This document shows, in pieces, positions 1 to 11,634 of a DNA stretch of 64,000 nucleotides (position 1 is the stretch's first letter; every line of letters begins with the position of its first letter). The translations under genes and the position numbers were made by a program. The notes under the pieces were generated by a model. The model saw only the letters and a program-made list of their open reading frames with translations. It did no database searches and was not told where the DNA came from. The DNA lies in assembly GCA_944348085.1 (NCBI GenBank), contig CALVMU010000003.1:1372-65371 (forward strand), given 5' to 3'. Source of the stretch: an uncultured Clostridia bacterium (GTDB taxonomy: Bacteria > Bacillota > Clostridia > Christensenellales > UBA1242).

Positions 1-230
1 AATTTTATAGGGACTTTATTTGAGTTTAATTCTATATTAAAGACATAAATTTCTTTTGTTGTTTCATTTGCTTCCATATTTGTTCTATCAGGAGATAAAA
101 CATTTGCCAAAACAACTTTAATAACATTTCCAGCATCTGCCTTAACAAGTTTATCAGCTTTTATTGTTCTAAACAATTCAAGCATCTTAAATTGTATATT
201 AACTTCTGTTTTTTCATTAAATATAAACAT
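1..230 (-). CDS. hypothetical protein, N-terminal 76 codons only (runs off the left edge); third gene of the helicase operon
   Basis: Not in the ORF track because it is open at the window edge. My reverse-strand translation from the ATG at 230-228 gives MFIFNEKTEVNIQFKMLELFRTIKADKLVKADAGNVIKVVLANVLSPDRTNMEANETTKEIYVFNIELNSNKVPIK, with no stop before position 1. The ATG lies 2 nt after the TAA (235-233) of the upstream gene. Confidence 0.45.
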   Translation of the reverse strand, partial: MFIFNEKTEVNIQFKMLELFRTIKADKLVKADAGNVIKVVLANVLSPDRTNMEANETTKEIYVFNIELNSNKVPIK

Positions 231-232
231 TA

Positions 233-1429
233 TTAATCTTCCCCTTCATCATCCTCATCAAAACCAAGATCAAGATTATCGTTATCATCTTTGATGTCAT
301 TATCAAAATCGTAATCTTTAATATTATTGTAAATTAATCTACATCTTTTCTCACCAAGTTTTTCTATTTCTTCCTTAACCATTTTTTTATAATAATCTTG
401 ACTGATTCCATATTTTTCTAAAAATAAAACTACATCTTCAAAATTAAGATCTTTGGAATAATCAACTTCATTTTCAAAAGTATCAAAATTATTATCTTCA
501 TTTGTTTCATCAAAATCACAATAAATAATTTCATCTTCTATATAATAATTGATTTTATTATTAAAATTTTCTTCGTTTTTATCATTAAAATCTTTTTCAT
601 TTAAATATGTATCATCATAATCATCTAAATTATCTTCATCGTCTTCATTGTCTATATTAGAAGACACAAATCTTTCTTTTTCACTACTTATATTATATTT
701 TATATCTTCAATACAATTATAATTAAAGTTTTTAGTTTTATCTTTAGTTTTTAATATTTGTCTAAAAATTTCTTCTCCATCAAAGTATAATGATTTTCCA
801 ATCTTCTTCTTAATGATGCAATTATTCAATATCGTGTTTATTTCCGAGTCTGCAATAAATACACATTTTGCAAGTCTTTTTACCATATTAAGTTTCAAAT
901 ATGCAATCTGATTTGAACTTATTGAGAAATATATATTGAATATATAATCAAATATTGTTTTCAAATTTGACATATTTTTAATATTAAAGTTTTTTAACAT
1001 TTTTTCACTTTTATAAGTTAATAAAGATGTATCTACACTAGAAGATATAGTTTTTATTGTATCATTAAAATTAATTTCTTTTCTTGTATAGCTGACATTA
1101 CCACATGAGAAAAAGTATAGTTTTTCGTATTGCACAATAAAAATTGTAGGCTTCTGTATCAATTTATATAATAAATTCAATATCTGAGTCAGATTTCCAA
1201 CCGATTTTAACTTTATATAGTAATAAAATACTTCATTATAATATGCATCTTCATCTTGTATCAAATTCAACATTTTGTAATCTACTTTTGCAACAGGGAA
1301 AAAATCGATAATTTGATCAATATAAAATTTTTCTATATTGTTAAACTTATAAAAGTTGAACCTATATTTTAAATCCGTTTTTTCAATAAAAGAGTTAAAA
1401 GGTAAATTAAAATAATGCAAAATATTCAT
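233..1429 (-). CDS. hypothetical 398-aa protein: globular N-terminal part of about 250 aa plus a hyper-acidic D/E/N-rich C-terminal part
   Basis: Long ORF in very AT-rich DNA, 89 bp downstream of the helicase gene on the same strand. Residues 257-332 and 372-398 are dominated by D/E/N (for example NEDDEDNLDDYDD and DDNDNLDLGFDEDDEGED). I recognise no catalytic motif. Confidence 0.6.
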   Translation of the reverse strand: MNILHYFNLPFNSFIEKTDLKYRFNFYKFNNIEKFYIDQIIDFFPVAKVDYKMLNLIQDEDAYYNEVFYYYIKLKSVGNLTQILNLLYKLIQKPTIFIVQYEKLYFFSCGNVSYTRKEINFNDTIKTISSSVDTSLLTYKSEKMLKNFNIKNMSNLKTIFDYIFNIYFSISSNQIAYLKLNMVKRLAKCVFIADSEINTILNNCIIKKKIGKSLYFDGEEIFRQILKTKDKTKNFNYNCIEDIKYNISSEKERFVSSNIDNEDDEDNLDDYDDTYLNEKDFNDKNEENFNNKINYYIEDEIIYCDFDETNEDNNFDTFENEVDYSKDLNFEDVVLFLEKYGISQDYYKKMVKEEIEKLGEKRCRLIYNNIKDYDFDNDIKDDNDNLDLGFDEDDEGED

Positions 1430-1518
1430 GACTTTTTCTCCATTTGTATAATATAATTCTTTTTTTCATTACTTTTTTATCTTATAAATAATTAAGAATC
1501 TTTTTCTTCTTATGTTTT

Positions 1519-4500
1519 TTATTTTACAACTACAAAAGCAAGTAACTCAAAATCATCAAGTCCTTTTATTTTTGTTCCACTAAGCACCATACTTCCTTGT
1601 TTGAAAAGTGCGTTTATATCACTTTGTTCTTTGACTTGTATTATACTTTCAATTGATTTTTCAAGCAACTTACTATATTTTGACATATCAAGTCCATCAT
1701 TTGTTTCTTCGTTAAAAATACTACAAACTTTATATAAAGGATCTTTTTTATCTTTACAAGCAATTCTTATACTATCCAAAATTTCTTTAACTTCTAGGTG
1801 GTTATTTACAATTTCCCCTTTTTCATCAATGTAAACCAAATAATAAGGGTGCAAGCGATTTTGTCTATTTATATTCACATTATTATTTTGATTTTTGAGA
1901 GTATAAATAACTCCAGGAACAATCCCTCGTGACGAATCTTTCTCTATGACGCAGTGCATTCCTTTTGGAACTCGTTTAGGTTCACCATAAACTTTTACAA
2001 GTTCAGTTGCATCCATTCTAAATTCATTTAATCCAAGATCACTTATAGAAATACCATTATTCGTATCTTCAAGGTCAATATTTTCACCCTCTCGAAGTTT
2101 TTTAATTTGCAATTCACGATAATCATCCATTTGGTCATCAGGATTTAAAATATTGTCATCTGCAGTAGCTGTTTGATCAACAATTGTCATTCTGCTTTTA
2201 ACTCTATCGGTAAGATTAATATATTCATTCAGTGGAAGTGGTGGCCAAAAGTTTACTAATTGTATTACTTTATTTTTACTACCAATTCTATCAATACGCC
2301 CAAACCTTTGAACAATTCTGACTGGATTCCAATGTATATCATAATTTATACACATATCACAATCCTGTAAGTTTTGTCCTTCTGATATACAATCAGTTGC
2401 AATCAAAACATCTATATCTTCAAAACAATCATCATATTCATGTTTGTCAATTTTATTACTCCAATTAAGTTTTGGATCTTTATAACTTTCTATTTGAGAA
2501 GGTATCCAACTAAAAACCTTATCTCTATTCTTGCTAATAGGACTAAACATTGTAAGTAAAGTATTTGTTTTCTTTGGACAATGTTTAAGCGAAACTTTAT
2601 TTATTTGTCCTTCAATCATTGCGGAATTTATTCCATATTTATCTTTTAACCACTTATGTAAATTTTCATATAAATAGTTTGCAGTATCAGCAAAGGCAGA
2701 AAAGATTAAAAATTTTTTATTTCCAGGATTTATTGGATTATTTATCTTTTTATCTATAATTTCTTTTAATGTTTGAAGTTTTAAATCATGTTCTGGGGTA
2801 ACTTTGCCAAGTTCATTTAATAAAGTCTCAAGTATTTCTACATCATGTTCCATTGCTTGTTGCCATGAAAGTCTATCTATATCAGCATATTCTATATGAA
2901 TTTCTTTGCCTTTATCAGTTTGAACCAAATTTAAACTTCCATCTTCATCTTGGTCAAATATTTCATAATTAAATACTTTCTTTGTTGCAAAGGCATCCGG
3001 TCTCATTTGTCCTGCATTATAATAAGACAATCTTTTTAATTCTGATCTATTTAAATCTAACATCCCAAGCATTGTAAGTCTAAAAGATTCAACACTTGAC
3101 TCAAGTCGCTTAAGCAAATTAACTGTCATTAAACGTTTAATACCTGAAGTTCTACCACTACGAGTTAGTCCACTATGCTTGATTTCCACATCATATTTTC
3201 TTTCATATTTATCTTTTTGACTATCAAGAACAAAATCAAATAATCCATAAACAGCCATGTTAAGCGATTTTATAGATTGATAAATTTCCTTATATTCAGG
3301 AACATCTTTTCTTTTTGTAAGTTCAGGTGCATATGAAAGTGGTGGAAGTCTGTCTGGGAATCTTCCTATACCATTCATATTATAATACTTGGATATATTT
3401 TTCCTACTTCTAGCTATAGTTACGCTATCAAGTAAAATTTTGAAATCTATACTCAAAGCATCAATCAAATCTTTGTTTTTTCTCTCATTTGGCGGTCTTT
3501 TACTCCAATCATTAAATACAGCTTGCGCTTGTCTAAAAATTGTAGCTATATTACTTTTTGTTTCCAAACTTTTTTCAAATGCATCATAATCTTGACTATA
3601 AGCAATTGCTAATTGATTTTTAAGATCGTTATATCTATTGTTTACAGGTGTGGCTGAAAGCATTAAAACTTTTGTTCTAACGCCTGCCTTAATTATATGA
3701 TTAATTAGAAAATCATATCTTGTCTCTTTATCTTTTACAGGATTGTTATTTCTGAAATTATGACTTTCATCAATTACTACAAGGTCATAATTGCCCCAAT
3801 TTACAAGTTTTAAATCTCTTCCATTATGAGCAATTCCAGCACGACCTAAATCCGTGTGATACAACACTTCATATCTAATTCTATCTTCATAAAAAATATT
3901 TGTAGTATCATTACTATCTCCAGAGTATTGCGTCCAGTTATCACTTAACCTTTTTGGACAAAGAACTAAAATACTTTTATTTCTAAGCGAATAATAAGCA
4001 ATAACTGCAAGAGCCGTAAATGTTTTACCAAGCCCCACACTATCTGCCAAAATACAACCATTATGTTTTTCAAGTTTATTAATTATACTAATAACTCCAT
4101 CTTTTTGAAAATCATAAAGCATATTCCATATTTTTGTATCTTTAAATCCGGTTGCCTCATTAGGCATATTATCTTCACTTATATCATCAAGAAACTCACT
4201 AAAAATATTATACAAAATGAAAAAATAAATAAATTCAGGACTATTTTCTTGATATGCACTACTTATCATTTCAACAACATTATTTGTTATATCTTCAACT
4301 TTTGTTTTATCATTCCATATTTCATCAAACATTGAAAATAAATATTTGCTTTGTTCTGGAAAATCAGTTTTATTTATTGCTGTAAATATACTGTTCCCCT
4401 TTTGATAACCTAAGTCTACTGTCGTAAATCCATTAACAGGATTATAAGTTACTGATGTTTTATCAATGTTTTCTATTCCTATTAAATTAGGTATTGAAGA

Positions 4501-4875
4501 GTTTGTAATATTACTTTTAAACTTAACTTTTTGTTTAACCCAACTCGCACATTCTTTAGCTATTGCCTTTAATGTCATTTCGTTACGAAGTTTTATTTCA
4601 AACTCAGAACCATATAAATTATTTTCTCTATCTTGTTTTGGTATATAAAATTCTCTTTTTTCTTTTTTTAAACCTTCAGTAATAGTATTGTTAGTAAAAG
4701 TTGGAGAAGTGAACAGAAATTTAAGTTCTTCAATTTGACTAAGTTCTTCTTTTAATTCTTTAAATGCATACATAGAAAAACAAGAAGAAGCTATTCTTAC
4801 TTTTGATTCTTTTTTTAATTCTTTCTTTAAATCATCACCTAAAAGTTTCGTTCTATTATCTATATTTTCAAACAT
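1519..4875 (-). CDS. SNF2/SWI2-family superfamily-2 helicase (about 1118 aa) with a degenerate PLD-like N-terminal region and a C-terminal extension of about 250 aa
   Basis: Motif I ILADSVGLGKTFTA. Motif II VVIDESHNFRN (DExH). Motif III LMLSATPVNN. Helicase-C motifs ATDCISEGQNLQDC and HWNPVRIVQRFGRIDRIG. The N-terminus (KVRIASSCFSMYAFKEL) looks like the PLD-type module fused to such helicases but has no HxK. Start moved to ATG 4875 (MFENID), which follows an AGAGGG RBS; the track start at 4893 is TTG. Confidence 0.85.
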   Translation of the reverse strand: MFENIDNRTKLLGDDLKKELKKESKVRIASSCFSMYAFKELKEELSQIEELKFLFTSPTFTNNTITEGLKKEKREFYIPKQDRENNLYGSEFEIKLRNEMTLKAIAKECASWVKQKVKFKSNITNSSIPNLIGIENIDKTSVTYNPVNGFTTVDLGYQKGNSIFTAINKTDFPEQSKYLFSMFDEIWNDKTKVEDITNNVVEMISSAYQENSPEFIYFFILYNIFSEFLDDISEDNMPNEATGFKDTKIWNMLYDFQKDGVISIINKLEKHNGCILADSVGLGKTFTALAVIAYYSLRNKSILVLCPKRLSDNWTQYSGDSNDTTNIFYEDRIRYEVLYHTDLGRAGIAHNGRDLKLVNWGNYDLVVIDESHNFRNNNPVKDKETRYDFLINHIIKAGVRTKVLMLSATPVNNRYNDLKNQLAIAYSQDYDAFEKSLETKSNIATIFRQAQAVFNDWSKRPPNERKNKDLIDALSIDFKILLDSVTIARSRKNISKYYNMNGIGRFPDRLPPLSYAPELTKRKDVPEYKEIYQSIKSLNMAVYGLFDFVLDSQKDKYERKYDVEIKHSGLTRSGRTSGIKRLMTVNLLKRLESSVESFRLTMLGMLDLNRSELKRLSYYNAGQMRPDAFATKKVFNYEIFDQDEDGSLNLVQTDKGKEIHIEYADIDRLSWQQAMEHDVEILETLLNELGKVTPEHDLKLQTLKEIIDKKINNPINPGNKKFLIFSAFADTANYLYENLHKWLKDKYGINSAMIEGQINKVSLKHCPKKTNTLLTMFSPISKNRDKVFSWIPSQIESYKDPKLNWSNKIDKHEYDDCFEDIDVLIATDCISEGQNLQDCDMCINYDIHWNPVRIVQRFGRIDRIGSKNKVIQLVNFWPPLPLNEYINLTDRVKSRMTIVDQTATADDNILNPDDQMDDYRELQIKKLREGENIDLEDTNNGISISDLGLNEFRMDATELVKVYGEPKRVPKGMHCVIEKDSSRGIVPGVIYTLKNQNNNVNINRQNRLHPYYLVYIDEKGEIVNNHLEVKEILDSIRIACKDKKDPLYKVCSIFNEETNDGLDMSKYSKLLEKSIESIIQVKEQSDINALFKQGSMVLSGTKIKGLDDFELLAFVVVK

Positions 4876-4903
4876 AAAACCCTCTTTACTCAAACCTGTT
4901 TTT

Positions 4904-4972
4904 ATTATAACATAAAAGTTTTAAATTTGTTTAATTAAATTAAAATAATTTCCGTTTACAAATATTATAACA
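4904..4972 (-). promoter_or_regulatory. two candidate extended -10 promoters (TGTTATAAT) for the helicase operon
   Basis: The reverse strand reads TGTTATAAT at 4972-4964 and again at 4912-4904. Both lie in the 120-bp gap upstream of the helicase start. Confidence 0.4.
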
Positions 4973-5013
4973 TATAGCATGAGTAAAATTTTATACAACA
5001 ATTAAAAATTGGA

Positions 5014-5604
5014 TTGTTTGAGATCCTGGCGTGTGCTTGTCTTGATAAGATAACTTTAAAATTTATGCTACTTACAGGTGTAAGACTTGGTGAAATGTGT
5101 GGTATTAGATGGAGTGATATTGATTTTTCTAAAAAAGTTGTTCATATTGTGCGTGCAAGGTTATATCATAAAGAATTTGGAGTTTATGAAAAAGCTCCAA
5201 AAACAAAAACTTCAATAAGAGATATTCCACTGCCCGACTCACTTATCAATGACTTAATAAAATATCAAAAATGGTTTAGACTTGCAGATAGTGATTTTGA
5301 TAATAATTTAGACAAATATTACATAGCTGTAAATATTTATAGAGAACCAATTAGCAAAAGTAAAGTTAATGCTTGGTTAAAATCATTTGAAATTGAAAAT
5401 GGTTTTAAGAAAATATCTTGCCACGGACTTCGGCACACCTATTGCAGTTTGCTACTTTCTCAAAATGTTCCTATACAAACTGTTAGTAAATATCTAGGAC
5501 ATAGTGATTCAACTATAACTTTAAAAGTTTATAGCCACTTTATGCCAGACACCCAAGAAAAAGTAGTAAACGCACTTAACAATATTACACAAACCGGGTC
5601 ATAA
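5014..5604 (+). pseudogene. 5'-truncated tyrosine recombinase (phage-type integrase): catalytic C-terminal domain only
   Basis: Catalytic signature present: LLTGVRLGE (Arg), HGLRHTY (HxxR), LGHSDSTITLKVYSH (His and Tyr nucleophile). The N-terminal core-binding/SAM-like domain of about 150-200 aa is absent. Only 120 bp separate it from the divergent helicase gene, and the ORF opens on a TTG with no RBS. Confidence 0.75.
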
Positions 5605-5633
5605 CACTCCGTTTGTTTTTATTAGGAGGAAAT

Positions 5634-5831
5634 ATGTATATACCAAAATTAAGAAAACAAGAAAATATAGCAAAAGATATAAAGAAAATAGATAAAAACA
5701 CTGCAATTACAGGATATTTAATTGAAATACTCGCTAAAGAAGGAAAAATAACAAGAATTAAATATGGGAATGCTTGGTTAGTAAACATAGATGAAATTGC
5801 AGATTTCTTTAATAAAAGGAGGAAAAAATGA
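5634..5831 (+). CDS. small excisionase/HTH-like DNA-binding protein (65 aa)
   Basis: AGGAGG RBS 4 nt before ATG 5634. The segment ITGYLIEILAKEGKITRIKYGNAWLVNIDEIADFF resembles excisionase-family HTH proteins. It sits directly downstream of the integrase remnant. Confidence 0.5.
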   Translation: MYIPKLRKQENIAKDIKKIDKNTAITGYLIEILAKEGKITRIKYGNAWLVNIDEIADFFNKRRKK

Positions 5832-6226
5832 AAAAAGTTTCAACTGGTGTCATATATAGACTTTTTAAAGATGGAGATAAAGATACAATAATACGAAAAA
5901 CCAATATACGAACATTTTGTCAACAAAAAAGCCTTGACTATATTATTAGTCAAGGCAAAATGCTTGTTGATATGAAAAGTTTTCTCAATGCACTAAACCC
6001 AAAACATTATAAAGCAAACAAAACCTTTCCAAGATTAAGAACCAAAATTTCAGCACAATACGAATGGAACGCTCACCATAGAACAAAAATCAAACACCAC
6101 ATAATTGATTGCATTTGCAACTCTGGTAAGATCAACATCTACAAACACGGAAGAACCAACATAATAAACTACGACCAACTCGAAAAAGAACTCATCGCCC
6201 CCCTAAAACAAAAAGGTAAATATTAA
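5828..6226 (+). CDS. hypothetical 132-aa basic protein of the mobile-element module
   Basis: ATGA start/stop overlap with the preceding gene. No motif recognised. Confidence 0.45.
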   Translation: MKKVSTGVIYRLFKDGDKDTIIRKTNIRTFCQQKSLDYIISQGKMLVDMKSFLNALNPKHYKANKTFPRLRTKISAQYEWNAHHRTKIKHHIIDCICNSGKINIYKHGRTNIINYDQLEKELIAPLKQKGKY

Positions 6227-6248
6227 AAAAATAAAATATTATTCTAAT

Positions 6249-7211
6249 TTATATAATTAAAATCTCATAAGATATTAAGATTAAAAGATGAAAAAATATC
6301 ATAGTAATTGGAAAATCAAATGGATCATAAGGTTTATATGTATTGCAATGCATAATATCATTTCTTAAATTCAATTCCTTGGCGTCAAACATACATTTTA
6401 ATAATGTTAATAAATCAGAATCTAAATTTCTTTTTGCATAGATATTATTTAATAACGCCCCTAAAGTATAAGATTTATCGTTGACTAATTTATCTAAATC
6501 CTTTTTTACATCAGATTTTAATTCATTATATTTTTTAATCATTTCAGTAATATTATATTTGATATCATCAACATCTTCAAAAATCTTAATAATTTTATTA
6601 TTAATATATACTTCCTTTGCTATTTTAAAATATTTTAAATACTTTTCTTCGATCTCTATTTGTTTATCTTCTATCATTTTATTAAGTATTTTTACTTCTT
6701 CTTTTAATGCGCATCTCTTAATATTTTCTATAATATTCCTTTCGAATAAACTTAAGGTTATCATAGTCGCACCATAAATTTGCTTTTTAGTTTTAAAATT
6801 TATTAACAAATTATCTTTTATACTTAACTCGACTTCATTCAACATTCCTTTTATATTGATAAAAATTTCTTCAGCATTTTTAATACTATCAAAAATAAAA
6901 TCATCGGTTTGGCAGTAATCTGCATATAATCTCATAAGAGCATTTCCATAACAAAAATATAAAATAAAAAATTTTACTGCATTTTTATTTCGATTTTCAT
7001 AATTTTCCTGATTAACATATTCTTCTTTCTCCCCAAAAGTCGATATCTTTAATTCTTCATCAATTTTATCATTTAACAATTTAAATACTTCGAAGTTAGT
7101 AGACTTATTATATAAATTATTTTCCAACTTGTTATATATCAAATTTTGAAATTCGATTATATCATCTTTATCTTTTACCTCATAGCATCCATCTTTAAAA
7201 TAAAATTCCAT
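6249..7211 (-). CDS. HEPN-motif protein (Abi-like candidate), 320 aa
   Basis: C-terminal LNLRNDIMHCN matches the HEPN R-x4-H (RNxxxH) signature found in Abi/HEPN RNases. The rest is predicted helical and K/E/N-rich. The DNA is AT-rich and the gene lies next to the tRNA 3' end. Confidence 0.45.
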   Translation of the reverse strand: MEFYFKDGCYEVKDKDDIIEFQNLIYNKLENNLYNKSTNFEVFKLLNDKIDEELKISTFGEKEEYVNQENYENRNKNAVKFFILYFCYGNALMRLYADYCQTDDFIFDSIKNAEEIFINIKGMLNEVELSIKDNLLINFKTKKQIYGATMITLSLFERNIIENIKRCALKEEVKILNKMIEDKQIEIEEKYLKYFKIAKEVYINNKIIKIFEDVDDIKYNITEMIKKYNELKSDVKKDLDKLVNDKSYTLGALLNNIYAKRNLDSDLLTLLKCMFDAKELNLRNDIMHCNTYKPYDPFDFPITMIFFHLLILISYEILII

Positions 7212-7281
7212 AATATCTCCTTACAAAAAACAAATATTTTTATAGCAAATAAAAATACTCTAAAAAATATTTAGAGTATCA

Positions 7282-7360
7282 TGGTGCACCTGAGAAGATT
7301 CGAACTTCCGACAAACCCGTCTTAGGAGGACGGTGCTCTATCCTGCTGAGCTACAGGTGC
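7282..7360 (-). tRNA. tRNA-Arg (anticodon CCT), CCA encoded
   Basis: Reverse complement: GCACCTG-TA-GCTC-AGCAGGATA-GAGC-A-CCGTC-CTCCTAA-GACGG-GTTTGTC-GGAAG-TTCGAAT-CTTCT-CAGGTGC-A-CCA. It has a perfect 7-bp acceptor stem and canonical D and T loops. The variable region appears to be 7 nt, which is slightly long. Confidence 0.8.
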
Positions 7361-7828
7361 ATATTAAAATTTTTGATAGTTTTTTGACTTCATTTTCGGT
7401 CAGAAATTTTAGTGATTTTTACTCAGTTTATTGAAGATACTCAAATAAATTTTTTAAAAATTGTATACCAAAATGTATACCAAAATTGTTTTTTCGATTT
7501 TTTCAAATCGCTACATCCCTTTATTTATAAGGCTTATAGCAATTTGCGGGGGATGGATAGTTCAACACCTTAGGAGGGCGCTGCGTTATACGATTACGCC
7601 ACGAAAACATATCAATTTGAAAAAAACAATCTAGAGGAAGAAGATCGCTTTCAATAAGACGTTCTTATTATAGCATATAGAAATCAAAAATTCAAATTTT
7701 TTGCATAAATTTTCAATTCCCTAAAAATTGCAACTCGCATGTCGAAGAATGTCATTTTTTGTTGACTTTGTGCTTTTGCATATTGTAAAATGTGTAAAGC
7801 ATGGAGGTTTTATGATTAATATTTTCTG

Positions 7829-8650
7829 TTGGTAACACATTGTTTATATTCTCTTTTTTATTGCTTTTACCATCGGCTCAATTTTTCTATCAAGATATTT
7901 TATAAAGAAAATAAAAAGTTAACAAAAGTTTTTGTCATTATTGCTGCAGCCATAACTTTCATATTTGTGCTTGCAAATAAAATAGAAATATGGATTAAAT
8001 ATGATTACAATTTTGCTTGTTTTGTTCCAGGAAGGTTTTGTAGTGCCCTTGCCTTTTGGGGACCTATTATCATGGTGATTGCAAAGCCGGATGGCAAATT
8101 TTTCCAATTTGCTATGTTTGGTATGGCATTAGGTGGCTTGCTTACAACCTTTTACCCAGAATTTACCATTGGCACTCCAACGATTTTTGCTCCAGTAAAC
8201 TTTACAGGACTTGTATATCACACATTGATGTTTGTAAGTTTTGTATATGTGATAGGAATTGGCTACTACAAACCATCTATGCAAAATTGGGGAAGTTTTC
8301 CTCTTGGAATGTTGTTGATGGTGCCATACATTTTGTTTAATTCACAAGTTTTAGGTGCAAGTGAAGACATGTATTTGTTTAGTCCTGCAATTGAAGGAAC
8401 TTCTTTATATTGGTGGGCAATTGGACTTTTAGCAATTTGTATATATACGATTTTCTTGCTGATATATGAGCAATTTGCATTTGAAAAACAATCGAGATGG
8501 CTTAATACCACATACAATAAAATTCGAAATTACTTTTCAAGTAAAAAAAAGAAATCACGGAAAGAGATAAACGAGTCTTTAAACGAAACTCAACCAAACA
8601 ATGATTTAGAAAATACAAAAAGCTTAAATGAAAGCGATAAAAATCAATAA
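7829..8650 (+). CDS. polytopic integral membrane protein (YwaF/TMEM164-like guess); start uncertain, possibly frameshifted
   Basis: Multiple hydrophobic segments. The ORF opens on TTG without an RBS, while a good GGAGG-ATG (7812) sits in another frame and stops after 7 codons. Confidence 0.55.
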   Translation: MVTHCLYSLFYCFYHRLNFSIKIFYKENKKLTKVFVIIAAAITFIFVLANKIEIWIKYDYNFACFVPGRFCSALAFWGPIIMVIAKPDGKFFQFAMFGMALGGLLTTFYPEFTIGTPTIFAPVNFTGLVYHTLMFVSFVYVIGIGYYKPSMQNWGSFPLGMLLMVPYILFNSQVLGASEDMYLFSPAIEGTSLYWWAIGLLAICIYTIFLLIYEQFAFEKQSRWLNTTYNKIRNYFSSKKKKSRKEINESLNETQPNNDLENTKSLNESDKNQ

Positions 8651-8696
8651 AAAACGCAGATCTTAGGCAAGCAATTTTGAAACTAGCAGAATATTA

Positions 8697-8735
8697 AAGA
8701 GAAACATAAGTAAAAACCACCTATGTTCTCTTTTT
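8697..8735 (+). terminator. rho-independent terminator after the membrane protein gene
   Basis: AAGAGAAACAT ... ATGTTCTCTTTTT: a stem with one bulge followed by a T-run. Confidence 0.55.
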
Positions 8736-8963
8736 GCACCAACTCTCGCTTAATTGCAAAAAAAACGAATACTTCTGCCGTTGTCACAGGTTGTCGTAAG
8801 AATAACAACCCTAAAAGTTATAAGGCACTCGCCTTGACCTTGACAACAAAGATTATTCGCTTACACTAGAAAAATATAGAGAAGAAAACAAAAAAGCAAA
8901 AGAGCGGATTGCGTTACGCTCTGCCAGCAACCGCTCTTTTTGCAACAAAATGCAATTAGATTA

Positions 8964-9030
8964 TTAGCGTGTGCTTGTCTTTCGGTGGAGCGAAGCGACA
9001 CCGACTTGTATATGACAAGCACACGCCTAA
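8964..9030. repeat. nested perfect hairpin (13-bp outer stem extendable to 16 bp; 6-bp inner stem)
   Basis: GCGTGTGCTTGTC (8967-8979) pairs with GACAAGCACACGC (9014-9026). Inner stem TCGGTG (8982-8987) pairs with CACCGA (8999-9004). The arm sequence recurs at 5029-5043. Confidence 0.8.
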
Positions 9031-9091
9031 CTGCCATTTTAAATAAAATTTTTAAAATTTTTATATATTCGCAACAATTTTAAAATTTTTG

Positions 9092-9100
9092 TGTTATAAT
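9092..9100 (+). promoter_or_regulatory. extended -10 promoter (TGTTATAAT) for the R-M operon
   Basis: TGnTATAAT at 9092-9100, about 70 nt upstream of the methyltransferase ATG. The -35 is weak. Confidence 0.45.
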
Positions 9101-9170
9101 GAATTTTGTATATAAAAGTAGCTGCTTTTTGTTTTCAAATATGCTATATTGTTAGTGTAAGGAGAATTTT

Positions 9171-10148
9171 ATGTTTACATATAAACTAGGTAGTTTATTT
9201 GCTGGAATTGGTGGAATAGATTTGGGATTCTTAAAAGCTGGAGTTTCTACTGCTTGGGCTAATGAAATAGACACCTATTGTGCAAAGACATTTAAATCAA
9301 ATCATTCAAATACAAATCTAATTGTTGGAGATATTTGTAATTTAAATGCAAAAGATTTAGAAAATATTGATATTTTAGCTGGTGGGTTTCCTTGTCAACC
9401 ATTTTCTATCGCTGGTTATAGAAAAGGGTTTGAAGATGATAGAGGCAACTTGTTTTTTCAAATCATTAGATTATTAAAAGAATTTAAAAATGAAAATAGA
9501 TTGCCAAAAGTTGTTTTTTTAGAGAATGTTAAAAATTTATATAATCACAATAATGGGGAAACTTTTAAATTAGTTAGAGAAGAGTTAAAAGAATTAGGTT
9601 ATCATGTGACTGAAAAAATAATCAACACTTGCGAATATGGTAATATACCTCAAAATAGAGAAAGATTATATATTGTTGGCTTTTTAGATGAAGATTGCTT
9701 TAATAGTTTTAAATGGCCAACAAAAACACCTTTAACAAATACTTTAGATAAAATAGTTGATTGGGATTCCGATGTAGATAAAAAATATTATTATACCGAA
9801 TCCACGAAGTGCTATCCTTTGCTTGCAGAAAATATTAAAAACAATCGTTCGATATATCAATTTAGAAGAGTTTATATTCGTGAAAATAAATCTGGTGTTT
9901 GTCCAACATTAACTGCAAATATGGGTATGGGTGGACATAATGTTCCTTTAATAAAAGATTCAAAAGAAAGAATAAGGAAATTAACCCCTAGAGAGTGTTT
10001 GTTATTGCAAGGATTTCCAAAAGATTTTATAATTCCAAAAGATTTGTGTGATTCAAGAGTTTATAAGCAAGCTGGTAATTCAGTTTCTGTTGAAGTTATA
10101 TATAGAATTGCAAAAGAGATTGTGAGGGTATTAAATGAAAAATGTTGA
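9171..10148 (+). CDS. DNA (cytosine-5)-methyltransferase, type II
   Basis: Canonical C5-MTase motifs: I LFAGIGG, IV GFPCQPFS (catalytic Cys), VI ENVKNL, VIII QNRERLYIVG, IX RKLTPRECLLLQGFP, X QAGNSVSV. AGGAGA RBS. Confidence 0.92.
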   Translation: MFTYKLGSLFAGIGGIDLGFLKAGVSTAWANEIDTYCAKTFKSNHSNTNLIVGDICNLNAKDLENIDILAGGFPCQPFSIAGYRKGFEDDRGNLFFQIIRLLKEFKNENRLPKVVFLENVKNLYNHNNGETFKLVREELKELGYHVTEKIINTCEYGNIPQNRERLYIVGFLDEDCFNSFKWPTKTPLTNTLDKIVDWDSDVDKKYYYTESTKCYPLLAENIKNNRSIYQFRRVYIRENKSGVCPTLTANMGMGGHNVPLIKDSKERIRKLTPRECLLLQGFPKDFIIPKDLCDSRVYKQAGNSVSVEVIYRIAKEIVRVLNEKC

Positions 10149-11292
10149 TTTTACTAAAAAATGTATTCCTTACAATCAATTAGAAGTAGAAAAATATTTA
10201 AAAGATTTAAAACTTGTTGGTTCTCTTTCTGGACTATTTTCTGATAGCGATATTCCATTATTACATTATAGGGCAACAGAAAATTTATATTGTGCAGATT
10301 TCAATGCTACAAATTTAGCAAGAGCTGATGTCTCTGCTGATGCGAAACTTAAATCGCATGGTATTGGAATTAAAACCTTTACAGAAGGAAATAAAAAAAC
10401 TTTGCAAAAAGTTGCAGAGTTTAATAGCCAACAATCTTTATATAACACATTAACAGGTGTTGATAAAGTAAAAAAAGTTGCAGAATTAAGAAATAAAAGA
10501 TTAGACTTCACAAAAGCTGCTTATGGGTTAAATGATTTAATATATCATTGTATTGTAAGAAATAAAGATGGTTTCTACCTTTTTGAAGAAACTATGAATT
10601 TTATAGACATAGATAATATTAAACTAATAAATGAGTCTCAACATACTTATATTTTTACTGATGGCATAGAAGAATATAAATTTGATTCTTCAAAAAGTAC
10701 ATTGTATAAAAGATTTATAACAGATACATATTTCGCTTATATAAAAGTAGATATTTTGACTGACCCTATTGAAGCATTAAGAAAAATATCTATAGCAAGT
10801 GAAGATGTTGTTATTGACTTTTCGCAAAGTGTCATTATTCCTTTATACTCTATGAAGAATGGAGAGAAAACTATTTTTAGTAAAAGTGGTTTAAATCAAT
10901 GGAATGCTGGTGGTAGAGTTAGAGATTATGATGAAGTTTATATTCCTTTTAATTCTACTTTAAGAGAAATGTATGAAGGTTTTTTCCCACCAAGAGATAC
11001 ACCTTTTGAAGTAACACTTCCAAATGGCGAAACAATGTCAATGAAGTTGTGTCAAGAAAACTGCAAAGCTCTTATGTCTAATCCTAATAAAGCATTGGGT
11101 AAATGGCTCTTAAGAGATGTTTTAAAAGTACCTTACGGGCAAATAATAACATATCAAGATTTATTAGAAATAGGCATTGATAGTGTTAGTTTTAAAAAAA
11201 TTGAAGATAAAAAATATATGCTAGATTTTAAAAATGTTGGAGAATTTGAAAATTTTATAAACAAAGAATATATGTCTGACATTGACAATTAA
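10135..11292 (+). CDS. putative cognate type II restriction endonuclease (385 aa)
   Basis: 14-nt overlap with the methyltransferase stop, same strand. The C-terminal part (GLNQWNAGGRVRDYDEVYIPF...LPNGETMSMKL...KALMSNPNKALGKWLL) reminds me of B3-like/EcoRII-N-type DNA-binding modules. The N-terminal part has a weak D...GIGIK element that could be a PD-(D/E)xK variant. Specificity is unknown. Confidence 0.55.
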   Translation: MKNVDFTKKCIPYNQLEVEKYLKDLKLVGSLSGLFSDSDIPLLHYRATENLYCADFNATNLARADVSADAKLKSHGIGIKTFTEGNKKTLQKVAEFNSQQSLYNTLTGVDKVKKVAELRNKRLDFTKAAYGLNDLIYHCIVRNKDGFYLFEETMNFIDIDNIKLINESQHTYIFTDGIEEYKFDSSKSTLYKRFITDTYFAYIKVDILTDPIEALRKISIASEDVVIDFSQSVIIPLYSMKNGEKTIFSKSGLNQWNAGGRVRDYDEVYIPFNSTLREMYEGFFPPRDTPFEVTLPNGETMSMKLCQENCKALMSNPNKALGKWLLRDVLKVPYGQIITYQDLLEIGIDSVSFKKIEDKKYMLDFKNVGEFENFINKEYMSDIDN

Positions 11293-11313
11293 AACATTGT
11301 TAGATAGAAATAG

Positions 11314-11345
11314 AAAACGAACCTTTTATTCAGGTTCGTTTTTTA
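11314..11345. terminator. bidirectional rho-independent terminator
   Basis: AAAACGAACC-loop-GGTTCGTTTT with flanking A and T runs, between convergent genes. Confidence 0.7.
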
Positions 11346-11370
11346 TTTAAATGTTTTAAATTATATTATT

Positions 11371-11634
11371 TTACAATTCAATTTTTGTGCTTTCAAAAGC
11401 AATTAAAAGACCTGTTTTGAATCCTTGAATATATGTATCTTCTAATTCATTTCCATGATTTTCAGCACATAAGTCAAGAAACTTTTCAAATAATTCTTTT
11501 TGCTCTTTGTTTAGTAATTTGCAAATATCATTATATAATGCTAATTCTTTATTGATATTTGGTGTAAACTTTGGATTTCGTTTGCGACTAACTTCTCCAA
11601 TATTACCATAATACAATTCTTGCAAAATATTCAT
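11371..11634 (-). CDS. small hypothetical protein (87 aa)
   Basis: AGGAGG RBS upstream of the ATG. Helical, with LYYGNIGE ... GFKTGLLIAFE. It resembles small cargo proteins of Clostridia mobile elements (from memory only). Confidence 0.5.
   Translation of the reverse strand: MNILQELYYGNIGEVSRKRNPKFTPNINKELALYNDICKLLNKEQKELFEKFLDLCAENHGNELEDTYIQGFKTGLLIAFESTKIEL

Follow-up and report, generated by a model that had tools for sequence, protein, structure and literature searches.

An SNF2 ATPase and DUF4391 pair ahead of a Type III restriction-modification core, read across the edge of a Clostridia sequence window

At one end of a 64,000-nt stretch of DNA from an uncultured Clostridia bacterium (assembly GCA_944348085.1, contig CALVMU010000003.1; the whole stretch is hereafter called the window), positions 1-4972 carry an SNF2-family ATPase gene, a gene for a protein with an acidic tail, and the beginning of a third gene that is cut by the edge. 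The locus raises the question of whether such a trio can be a defence system in its own right, as was claimed in an original prediction of a stand-alone operon with neither methylase nor nuclease, or whether it is a piece of something larger. We consider it likely that positions 1-4972 are the promoter-proximal section of one operon of ~13 kb in a gut Clostridia bacterium, in which the core is a Type III restriction-modification (R-M) system, the SNF2 ATPase and a DUF4391 protein form an accessory motor/adaptor unit, and gene 2 is a rare insertion. The three genes are co-directional on the minus strand with gaps of 89 nt (gene 1/gene 2) and 2 nt (gene 2/gene 3), as had been described, and are laid out as follows.

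1519..4875, minus strand: gene 1, SNF2-family ATPase of 1118 aa, stop codon at 1519-1521
4156..4875, minus strand: N-terminal domain of gene 1 (~aa 1-240), degenerate PLD/HKD domain
1522..2250, minus strand: C-terminal extension of gene 1 (~aa 876-1118)
233..1429, minus strand: gene 2, 398 aa, diverged lineage-specific DUF4391 paralogue
1..230, minus strand: gene 3, starting at ATG 230..228, with its first 76 codons in the window (full DUF4391 protein 211 aa)

What lies beyond the edge could be read from other assemblies. When the exact gene 2 protein was looked up in public assemblies it was found on 20 contigs, and six loci (L001-L006) were retrieved. One of them (L002) is the window's own contig, with 100% identity over window positions 1-11,429 (11,429 nt), and runs 3.6 kb further left; two others (L001 and L003) are ~99% identical to the window over the shared region and extend much further. 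The operon order is SNF2 ATPase, gene 2, DUF4391, a 140-aa protein, Type III Mod, a variable cargo gene and Type III Res. The suspicion that the system continues to the left of the window was therefore correct, and the genes found there are listed here.

L002 11200-11835: complete gene 3 (DUF4391)
L002 11835-12257: 140-aa protein, coiled coil plus CxxC...CxxC Zn-ribbon
L002 12257-14215: Type III Mod, 652 aa (PF01555, 122 bits; PADLOC MTase_III, 742 bits), on the same contig as the window
L002 14215-14970: variable gene on the window's own contig, a 251-aa membrane protein
Full length in L001 and L003: Type III Res, 1031 aa (ResIII and RE_endonuc, the latter 108 bits; PADLOC REase_III, 944 bits)

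Mod and Res matched the two subunits of EcoP15I (4ZCF_A, E 3.6e-63, and 4ZCF_C, E 1.9e-74, respectively), and the motifs DPPY, FxGxG, TGTGKT, DEPQ and PD...ExK were read in them. A PF01555 beta-class Mod with DPPY and FxGxG is followed downstream by a Res that joins an SF2 ATPase to a PD-(D/E)xK nuclease, and by every sequence criterion testable the core is Type III R-M; the locus departs from the two-gene (mod plus res) composition of that type in having SNF2 and DUF4391 conserved ahead of mod. By homology, Mod would be a beta-class N6-adenine methyltransferase that marks host DNA, and Res an EcoP15I-like SF2 ATPase whose C-terminal PD-(D/E)xK nuclease would cut unmethylated DNA. Because both are homologous to the EcoP15I pair, the self/non-self logic and the nuclease of the system would be those of Type III R-M. 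The remark that neither a methyltransferase nor a nuclease can be seen was thus literally true within the window but was an artefact of its edge, and, with Mod and Res genes lying past it, a stand-alone three-gene system is not supported. The original prediction had also allowed that an operon presented as undescribed might map onto a named system once its flanks were seen: the core does so, while the SNF2(dead-HKD)-DUF4391 pair and gene 2 stay undescribed.

In an attempt to learn how general this arrangement is, we used a DUF4391 alignment to scan GTDB genomes, one for each species. This gave 14 loci, all in metagenome-assembled genomes of gut Clostridia/Christensenellales, and in 13/13 that were long enough SNF2, DUF4391, Mod and Res occurred in that order. 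The same order is seen in L007 and L008, as well as around DUF4391 proteins that are ~15-17% identical to gene 3 (P0129 and P0132; L026/L027). A tblastn search of plasmids with the helicase gave 148 records, 110 of them with a match to at least 80% of the query. All plasmid and prophage records that we opened with a helicase at least 38% identical, from seven hosts, show the full four-gene order, with Res annotated as 'DEAD/DEAH helicase'.

E. coli, IncFIB phage-plasmid: helicase, DUF4391, site-specific methyltransferase, Res
Listeria, plasmid: helicase, DUF4391, methyltransferase, Res (the unannotated 185-aa gene is DUF4391 by Pfam)
B. cereus, plasmid: helicase, DUF4391, methyltransferase, Res
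E. faecium, plasmid: helicase, DUF4391, methyltransferase, Res
Providencia, plasmid: helicase, DUF4391, methyltransferase, Res
Lactococcus, plasmid: helicase, DUF4391, methyltransferase, Res
Erysipelothrix, prophage phi1605: helicase, DUF4391, methyltransferase, Res

The order recurs on a plasmid of the archaeon Methanomethylovorans hollandica (L041 2948-12973), which was found via its Res (36% identical) and not via helicase identity. SNF2 and DUF4391 precede mod in 8/8 plasmid, prophage and archaeal loci examined that have this helicase clade, and 10 of 5,426 complete E. coli genomes have the module, with generic PGAP annotation of its genes. The association of SNF2-DUF4391 with Mod-Res is very widely conserved across Bacteria and an archaeon. 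When plasmids were searched by tblastn with Res, two groups were obtained: one, which is this subfamily, consists of full-length matches at 33-62% identity that are annotated only as 'DEAD/DEAH box helicase family protein', and the other comprises matches at 28-33% identity on ~95-100 kb E. coli and Salmonella plasmids that carry the annotation 'type III restriction-modification system endonuclease'. The archaeal plasmid additionally has a second 'helicase-related protein' by an HSP90/GHKL-family gene, ~3.5 kb off and on the other strand (L041 16434-22916).

SNF2 and DUF4391 are also closely coupled. The gap from SNF2 to DUF4391 is -14 to +20 nt in 16/18 loci, and the DUF4391-Mod junction is -23 nt in B. 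cereus and 15-74 nt elsewhere. In pairwise-identity matrices of 18 loci, SNF2 correlated with Res at r=0.99 and with DUF4391 at r=0.97; within the Clostridia clade the values were 0.98 and 0.97, with Mod decoupled (r about 0.45), as would be expected if the specificity region of Mod is exchanged. DUF4391 showed no covariation with Mod specificity (partial r = -0.02). Because SNF2 co-diverges with Res and not with Mod, we read SNF2-DUF4391 as an accessory unit of Res. Were SNF2, gene 2 and DUF4391 instead an independent, self-sufficient defence system merely lying beside a separate Type III R-M in a defence island, one would have to account for genes that overlap or almost abut, including DUF4391 into Mod, for SNF2/Res co-divergence at r=0.98-0.99, and for an unchanged order from Clostridia to Gammaproteobacteria to Archaea in all loci checked with a helicase at least 38% identical plus the archaeal plasmid found via Res. 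Such a trio would also be without a visible effector, since the helicase has lost its nuclease residues and no nuclease or toxin domain was seen in gene 2 or DUF4391. Independence is made thinkable by the clustering of defence genes, by the amount of unrelated cargo between the genes of the Clostridial loci, by a plasmid (pCt3, below) with Mod-Res of this subfamily and no pair, and by the fact that the SNF2 family was first flagged near type III CRISPR loci (C3a139; PMC6546367); on balance we find it improbable.

Several points weigh against reading the pair as an accessory unit of Mod-Res. Clade structure accounts for part of the correlation between identities. On the Clostridium taeniosporum plasmid pCt3, Mod is accompanied by a 62%-identical Res, and no remnant of SNF2 or DUF4391 was found up to 12 kb away; a Mod-Res of this subfamily therefore does not always come with the pair. 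On a Rhizobium plasmid, Mod, DUF262 and Res are combined with a different SNF2, and DUF4391 is missing. The window's own contig ends 30 codons into Res, and these codons are identical to those of L001, so that an intact Res in this genome is putative. The predicted folds offer no functional hint: Foldseek gave no match with E <0.01 for the AlphaFold2 (AF2) model of DUF4391 against PDB, and the search proposed for gene 2 likewise returned none against PDB and BFVD. Finally, the motor, adaptor or sensor role is drawn from synteny, coupling and co-divergence, and a physical or functional link of the pair to Mod-Res is putative.

What kind of motor would the first member of the pair provide? Gene 1 has the four SNF2 motifs originally attributed to it, at residues 287 (GLGKT), 375 (DESH), 413 (SAT) and 862 (QRFGRIDR) in the numbering of the 1124-aa open reading frame (ORF), with motifs I, II, III and VI intact. 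Its Pfam matches are SNF2-rel_dom (PF00176; 47.4 bits, cut-off 24.9), Helicase_C (PF00271; 53.7 bits, cut-off 23.5) and ResIII, and its best PDB matches were Sth1, Snf2 and SsoRad54; it thus combines an SNF2-related N-lobe and a Helicase_C lobe with the motifs that define the family. The best model was PADLOC PDLC01075 C3a139 'HKD+Snf2' (351 bits, 4e-105), with residues 7-1123 aligned to model positions 1-947 of 948. Only partial matches were obtained to DrmD (101 bits with PADLOC, 135 bits with NCBIfam), BrxHII (92 bits) and HmaA (83 bits), as well as to ZorD and DpdE, and none of the NCBIfam equivalog cut-offs was reached by the gene 1 helicase. The mechanically called ORF (1519..4893) begins at a TTG; the true start is almost certainly the ATG at 4875..4873, which would give the 1118-aa length also chosen by gene callers.

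The N-terminal domain was originally described as PLD-like but devoid of the HxK dyad, and both parts of this description hold. Taken alone, the domain had no matches among Pfam, PADLOC or PDB sequences. Residues 1-276 lack any His and there is no HxK in the domain, which is equally true of 15/15 further full-length orthologue copies checked (14 loci), so the catalytic HxK(x)4D...GSxN pattern of the PLD/HKD superfamily is not present. A textbook LHxKxYIF...GSSN motif is kept in distant plasmid helicase relatives from Gordonia, Paenarthrobacter, Thermococcus, Natrinema and Brasilonema (24-27% identity), and when the N-domains of the window clade were compared with those of these relatives by hhalign (probability 96.5%, E 1e-9, 213 columns), HxK and GSSN of the relatives faced unrelated residues in the window clade. 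On this alignment the domain is PLD/HKD-derived with its catalytic residues lost, and it is predicted to be catalytically dead. Of the five HKD-bearing relatives, four have a large DNA methylase at their locus and none has DUF4391 or Res; the nuclease domain appears to have been inactivated in exactly the clade that acquired the Type III Res. At the other end of the protein, the uncharacterised extension announced as about 250 aa measures ~255 aa past motif VI. It is conserved across the family (C3a139 positions 747-947, E 2.5e-10; family alignment), and a profile search with it against PDB sequences gave no match.

The second member of the pair is gene 3, whose resemblance to DUF4391 had been suggested from its first codons. 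It turned out to be a bona fide member, the full-length protein scoring 84.6 bits against Pfam PF14335 (gathering threshold 29.9). Its AF2 model has a predicted local distance difference test (pLDDT) score of 60, and a DUF4391 sequence profile gave only noise against PDB. DUF4391 diverges ~2.7 times faster than SNF2 or Res (mean identity 68% vs 88% for SNF2). We picture it as an alpha/beta domain with a C-terminal coiled coil that would be a tightly coupled partner of the SNF2 ATPase.

Gene 2 is a diverged DUF4391, in line with the suggested resemblance. Its score against PF14335 (19.9 bits, E 7e-4) falls under the gathering threshold, although homology is indicated by hhalign against DUF4391 (probability 92.9%, E 4e-7, 228 columns), and a hidden Markov model (HMM) of gene 2 retrieves canonical DUF4391 proteins at E 2e-7 to 5e-4. 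The AF2 models of genes 2 and 3 open with the same helix-strand-strand-helix-strand-strand order. The core of gene 2 (~aa 30-250) was modelled with pLDDT 80-89, and its tail (252-398), with pLDDT <50, is predicted to be disordered; the extreme D/E/N composition of the tail was borne out, with 35% D+E and 13.5% N over residues 251-398 (window 236..679). Relatives are rare: an exhaustive HMMER search of 1.84 billion representatives yielded 7 proteins, a word-indexed search yielded 2 clusters, and the gene 2 alignment found no relatives among JGI metagenome contigs and IMG/VR. All relatives found also end in acidic tails; one (P0125) carries a fused KTSC domain, and its gene immediately precedes that of an SNF2 orthologue, while another (P0123), on a short contig, has a WYL regulator on one side and a PemK-like gene on the other. 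Gene 2 sits between SNF2 and DUF4391 in the window lineage only. We read it as an insertion into the SNF2|DUF4391 junction because all other loci have that junction without gene 2, and it is probably a lineage-specific accessory derivative of DUF4391 rather than a core component. The insertion would be a recent one, in which the coiled coil of DUF4391 has been swapped for a long, acidic, disordered tail, and gene 2 would most likely be a modulator or decoy form of DUF4391. At one Clostridial locus (L013), an unrelated 220-aa PD-ExK-like ORF occupies this junction.

How might the pair act? With all ATPase motifs kept and the nuclease chemistry lost, the SNF2 protein would act as a motor, and together with DUF4391 it would form an accessory motor/adaptor unit working with Res. 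Such a unit might serve the sliding Mod-Res complex by driving or clearing the DNA, or might couple Mod-Res to the sensing of invaders. We favour a motor/adaptor or sensor role that would extend or safeguard restriction, with DUF4391 meeting invader proteins; DUF4391 could be the arms-race component, as a sensor or as a target of phage inhibitors, because its fast divergence (~2.7x) fits such a part. Both the offensive options (clearing roadblocks, relaxing the two-site rule, countering anti-restriction) and a protective one (restriction alleviation) would fit these data.

The protective option deserves weighing as an alternative in its own right. SNF2 relatives such as RapA recycle stalled protein-DNA complexes, and canonical Type III systems avoid self-cleavage of hemimethylated DNA via their two-site rule. 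The pair could accordingly be a safety or housekeeping device, in which SNF2 strips Res-Mod from host DNA (restriction alleviation) or promotes methylation of new or repaired host DNA, with DUF4391 as adaptor. Gene 1 has weak RapA matches, a dead nuclease domain suits a non-destructive role, and the module is carried by plasmids, phage-plasmids and islands, which have to settle in naive hosts without killing them; one strain (L006) even tolerates a Mod nonsense mutation with Res intact. However, the two-site rule already provides the canonical systems with the protection that such a device would supply, and the rapid evolution of DUF4391 suits an arms-race interface better than housekeeping. 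We judge the device unlikely, if less so than an independent trio. A more ambitious version of the motor/adaptor reading would hold that SNF2(dead-HKD)-DUF4391-Mod-Res is a distinct four-component Type III-like restriction class, spread over Bacteria and Archaea on mobile elements, in which the motor and the fast-evolving adaptor are required for restriction and the mechanism differs from that of EcoP15I (a relaxed two-site/orientation rule, roadblock clearing or anti-restriction sensing), with gene 2 as a decoy or regulator whose acidic tail mimics DNA. We put this forward tentatively, as a possibility that we would not expect to hold in full.

The start of the operon was examined for signals that could drive its expression.

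4880..4887, minus strand: ribosome-binding site AAAGAGGG, 4 nt ahead of the ATG at 4875, read from the sequence
4904..4912, minus strand: proximal TGTTATAAT box, exact match, with a -35-like TAAACA 18 nt upstream (10/12 matches, TG present)
4964..4972, minus strand: distal TGTTATAAT box, exact match, extended -10-like

Two promoters had been proposed before gene 1. Both boxes are exact, and their promoter role is that of a consensus match in AT-rich DNA, so we list them as candidate promoters. The whole window contains 4 copies of TGTTATAAT where 0.77 would be expected; the promoter scan as a whole found 49 sites vs 38 ± 6 in shuffles, which is not far above shuffles for DNA this rich in AT. 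No terminator-like site was found between genes 1-3 on the coding strand. The GC content is 22-30% over window positions 1-12 kb and 37-43% for most of the window past ~15 kb, in agreement with the very AT-rich setting originally noted, and the membership of the genes in one co-directional defence-island operon is supported. Upstream of the module, Clostridia loci have a WYL/WCX protein (BrxR/CapW-like; L007 5291-6277 and L009 5400-6383), and Enterococcus (L031 8671-8871) and Lactococcus (L036 7036-7239) plasmids have a short helix-turn-helix (HTH) protein. The window lineage has neither type of regulator there, just the two TGTTATAAT boxes.

Further along the operon, the Clostridia loci (L001-L024) have hypervariable cargo slots, with different cargo in nearly every species, whereas the Proteobacterial and Bacilli versions of the module have almost no spacers. 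The slot between DUF4391 and Mod can contain the 140-aa Zn-ribbon protein, RhuM, DUF2971 or membrane proteins. In the second slot, which separates Mod from Res, we found a 659-aa weak GHKL ATPase (L001, E 2e-4), Abi_C, DUF2971, DUF3800, DUF4238, HEPN_Apea and the 251-aa membrane protein. A GIY-YIG/T5orf172 gene follows Res in L001 and L003. In three loci (L017, L020 and L024) there is a tandem pair of Mod genes, and the gene for a 157-aa protein related to the 140-aa Zn-ribbon protein overlaps their junction; this small protein thus seems to travel with a Mod cassette. Mod is broken in two of the records: in one strain with an otherwise 97%-identical operon, a CAA-to-TAA nonsense change splits it into 206 + 415 aa with Res intact (L006 3172-5130), and in Listeria pCFSAN074383 it is also split, into 140 aa + 475 aa.

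On its other side, gene 1 is flanked by the features below.

5014..5604, plus strand: tyrosine-integrase C-terminal fragment (PF00589, E 2e-25)
5613-5831, plus strand: ORF with a weak HTH_17 (excisionase-like) match
6249-7211, minus strand: 320-aa ORF called 'HEPN', with a sub-threshold DUF4209 match (E 9e-4, residues 244-288) covering an RNDIMH (Rx4H) motif
7282-7360, minus strand: tRNA-Arg(CCT), next to the truncated integrase
9092-9100, plus strand: third exact TGTTATAAT box, ahead of the C5 methyltransferase/endonuclease pair
9171..11292, plus strand: C5 DNA methyltransferase (PF00145) and NgoFVII-C-like endonuclease, genes overlapping by 14 nt

The neighbours named in the original prediction fared unevenly. 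The integrase remnant and the R-M pair are clear, and the latter is a separate Type II R-M in the same island. A HEPN protein at 6249-7211 is plausible from the sub-threshold DUF4209 match and the RNDIMH motif. The low-GC island with the operon resembles an integrative element at tRNA-Arg that has decayed; att repeats of the island were sought in L001 and none was convincing. Just past the tRNA-Arg side of the island, the window has ~340 extra bases (7757-8101) relative to 99%-identical contigs (L001, L004 and L005).

Textbooks and annotation tools treat Type III R-M as a two-gene system. Recent surveys also count Mod and Res only (e.g. PMC12418389). Neither DUF4391 nor this four-gene architecture was found to be treated in the searchable literature: PF14335 and IPR025503 had no matches, DUF4391 is mentioned in a gene-enrichment table and once more, apparently as a slip for DUF7941, the family treated in that passage, and searches for SNF2 with Type III R-M, DrmD or COG numbers found nothing on this module. 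The undescribed part of the locus is therefore a widespread SNF2(dead-HKD)-DUF4391 accessory pair on a known Type III R-M, outside any Type III definition, together with gene 2. A whole Res subfamily travels with a nuclease-dead SNF2 motor and DUF4391, in E. coli phage-plasmids, Listeria, Enterococcus, Lactococcus, B. cereus plasmids, gut Clostridia and an archaeon. Should restriction depend on the pair or be altered by it, DUF4391 would gain a function, and if our reading is true, this would be a fourth case of an SNF2 motor wired to methylation-based defence, beside DISARM class 1, BREX type 3 and BR/Hma. The accessory pair is experimentally accessible; the near-spacerless four-gene version of E. 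coli, as on pEC21Z137-115K (NZ_CP101235.1, 3254-12300), would then be a tractable system for the role of SNF2 motors, with Lactococcus pUL021B as a Gram-positive example of the operon, and the variable cargo slots of the Clostridial operons are a source of candidate defence genes.

It remains to compare the locus with the systems that it most resembles. C3a139 'HKD+Snf2', the best full-length model for the gene 1 helicase, is a four-member protein cluster near type III CRISPR-Cas cassettes with no assigned partners or function; Mod, Res and DUF4391 are not mentioned by its authors (Shah et al., 2018; PMC6546367). Lactococcus AbiR (AbiRa/b/c and the LlaKR2I methylase) has a Snf2-like ATPase fused to a nuclease-like N-domain and is toxic without the methylase (PMC13064643). 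By this description it is likewise a multigene system tied to a neighbouring R-M methylase, but its partners are sigma70-like and ParB-like and it has neither DUF4391 nor a Type III Res, and we regard it as a different system. Zorya (ZorD) and Dpd (DpdE) were rejected, because the matches were partial, confined to the ATPase core, and the partner genes are absent.

Closer in architecture are class 1 DISARM (DrmD, DrmMI and DrmABC) and the DUF499-centred BREX-related, or Hma, systems (HKD-SNF2, methyltransferase, DUF499 and DUF3780), and the locus could be conceived as a variant of either. The core of class 1 DISARM is the DrmA helicase, DrmB (DUF1998) and DrmC (PLD) (bioRxiv 10.1101/2021.12.28.474362). 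Here, too, a methylation-based defence operon places an SNF2 helicase ahead of its adenine methylase, with a separate helicase-type protein further downstream, and the helicase has the partial DrmD matches given above. Yet the window lineage has no DrmA, DrmB or DrmC, and DISARM has no DUF4391 or Type III Res; no operon protein matches DUF1998/DrmB, or DrmA above noise, and the DrmD equivalog (NF038317) scored 135 bits against a cut-off of 610, on which grounds class 1 DISARM was rejected. On B. cereus plasmid NZ_AP022875.1 (L030 4068-17801), SNF2-DUF4391-Mod-Res is immediately preceded on its own strand by drmA and a DUF1998 (drmB-like) gene, an arrangement that points to a DISARM/Type III hybrid or, failing that, to the two being repeatedly co-located.

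The Type-2 BREX-related systems have an SNF2 helicase with an N-terminal HKD domain (Rakesh & Krishnan, 2026; PMC12839542). They resemble this locus in combining an SNF2 whose N-terminal domain is of HKD/PLD type with an N6-adenine methyltransferase and with a small standalone alpha+beta protein (DUF3780 there, DUF4391 here). In contrast to them, the locus has no DUF499 ATPase (HmaC) and no DUF3780, its HKD domain is predicted to be dead, its nuclease is a Type III Res and its methylase is Type III Mod-like; the HmaA and BrxHII models match partially (83-92 bits) vs 351 bits for C3a139. DUF499 and DUF3780 were not matched by any operon protein, and this identity was rejected as well. For both families, the methylase is a PF01555 Type III Mod and not a PF13659 DrmMI or a BREX PglX-type enzyme, and its nuclease partner is the Type III Res. 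Despite the partial helicase matches, the shared HKD domain and the B. cereus co-location, we consider a DISARM or Hma variant extremely improbable.

The closest relatives of the core are EcoP1I and EcoP15I (PDB 4ZCF). The locus resembles them in its Mod-then-Res order, in an N6-methyladenine Mod with DPPY and FxGxG, in a Res that combines SF2 and PD-(D/E)xK domains, and in full-length PADLOC Type III matches. It differs in that the canonical systems consist of two genes, whereas here conserved SNF2 and DUF4391 genes precede Mod and co-diverge with Res; in that its Res is a separate subfamily (356 bits vs the 564 cut-off of the enterobacterial equivalog); and in having, at the Clostridial loci, an operon broken up by variable cargo slots.

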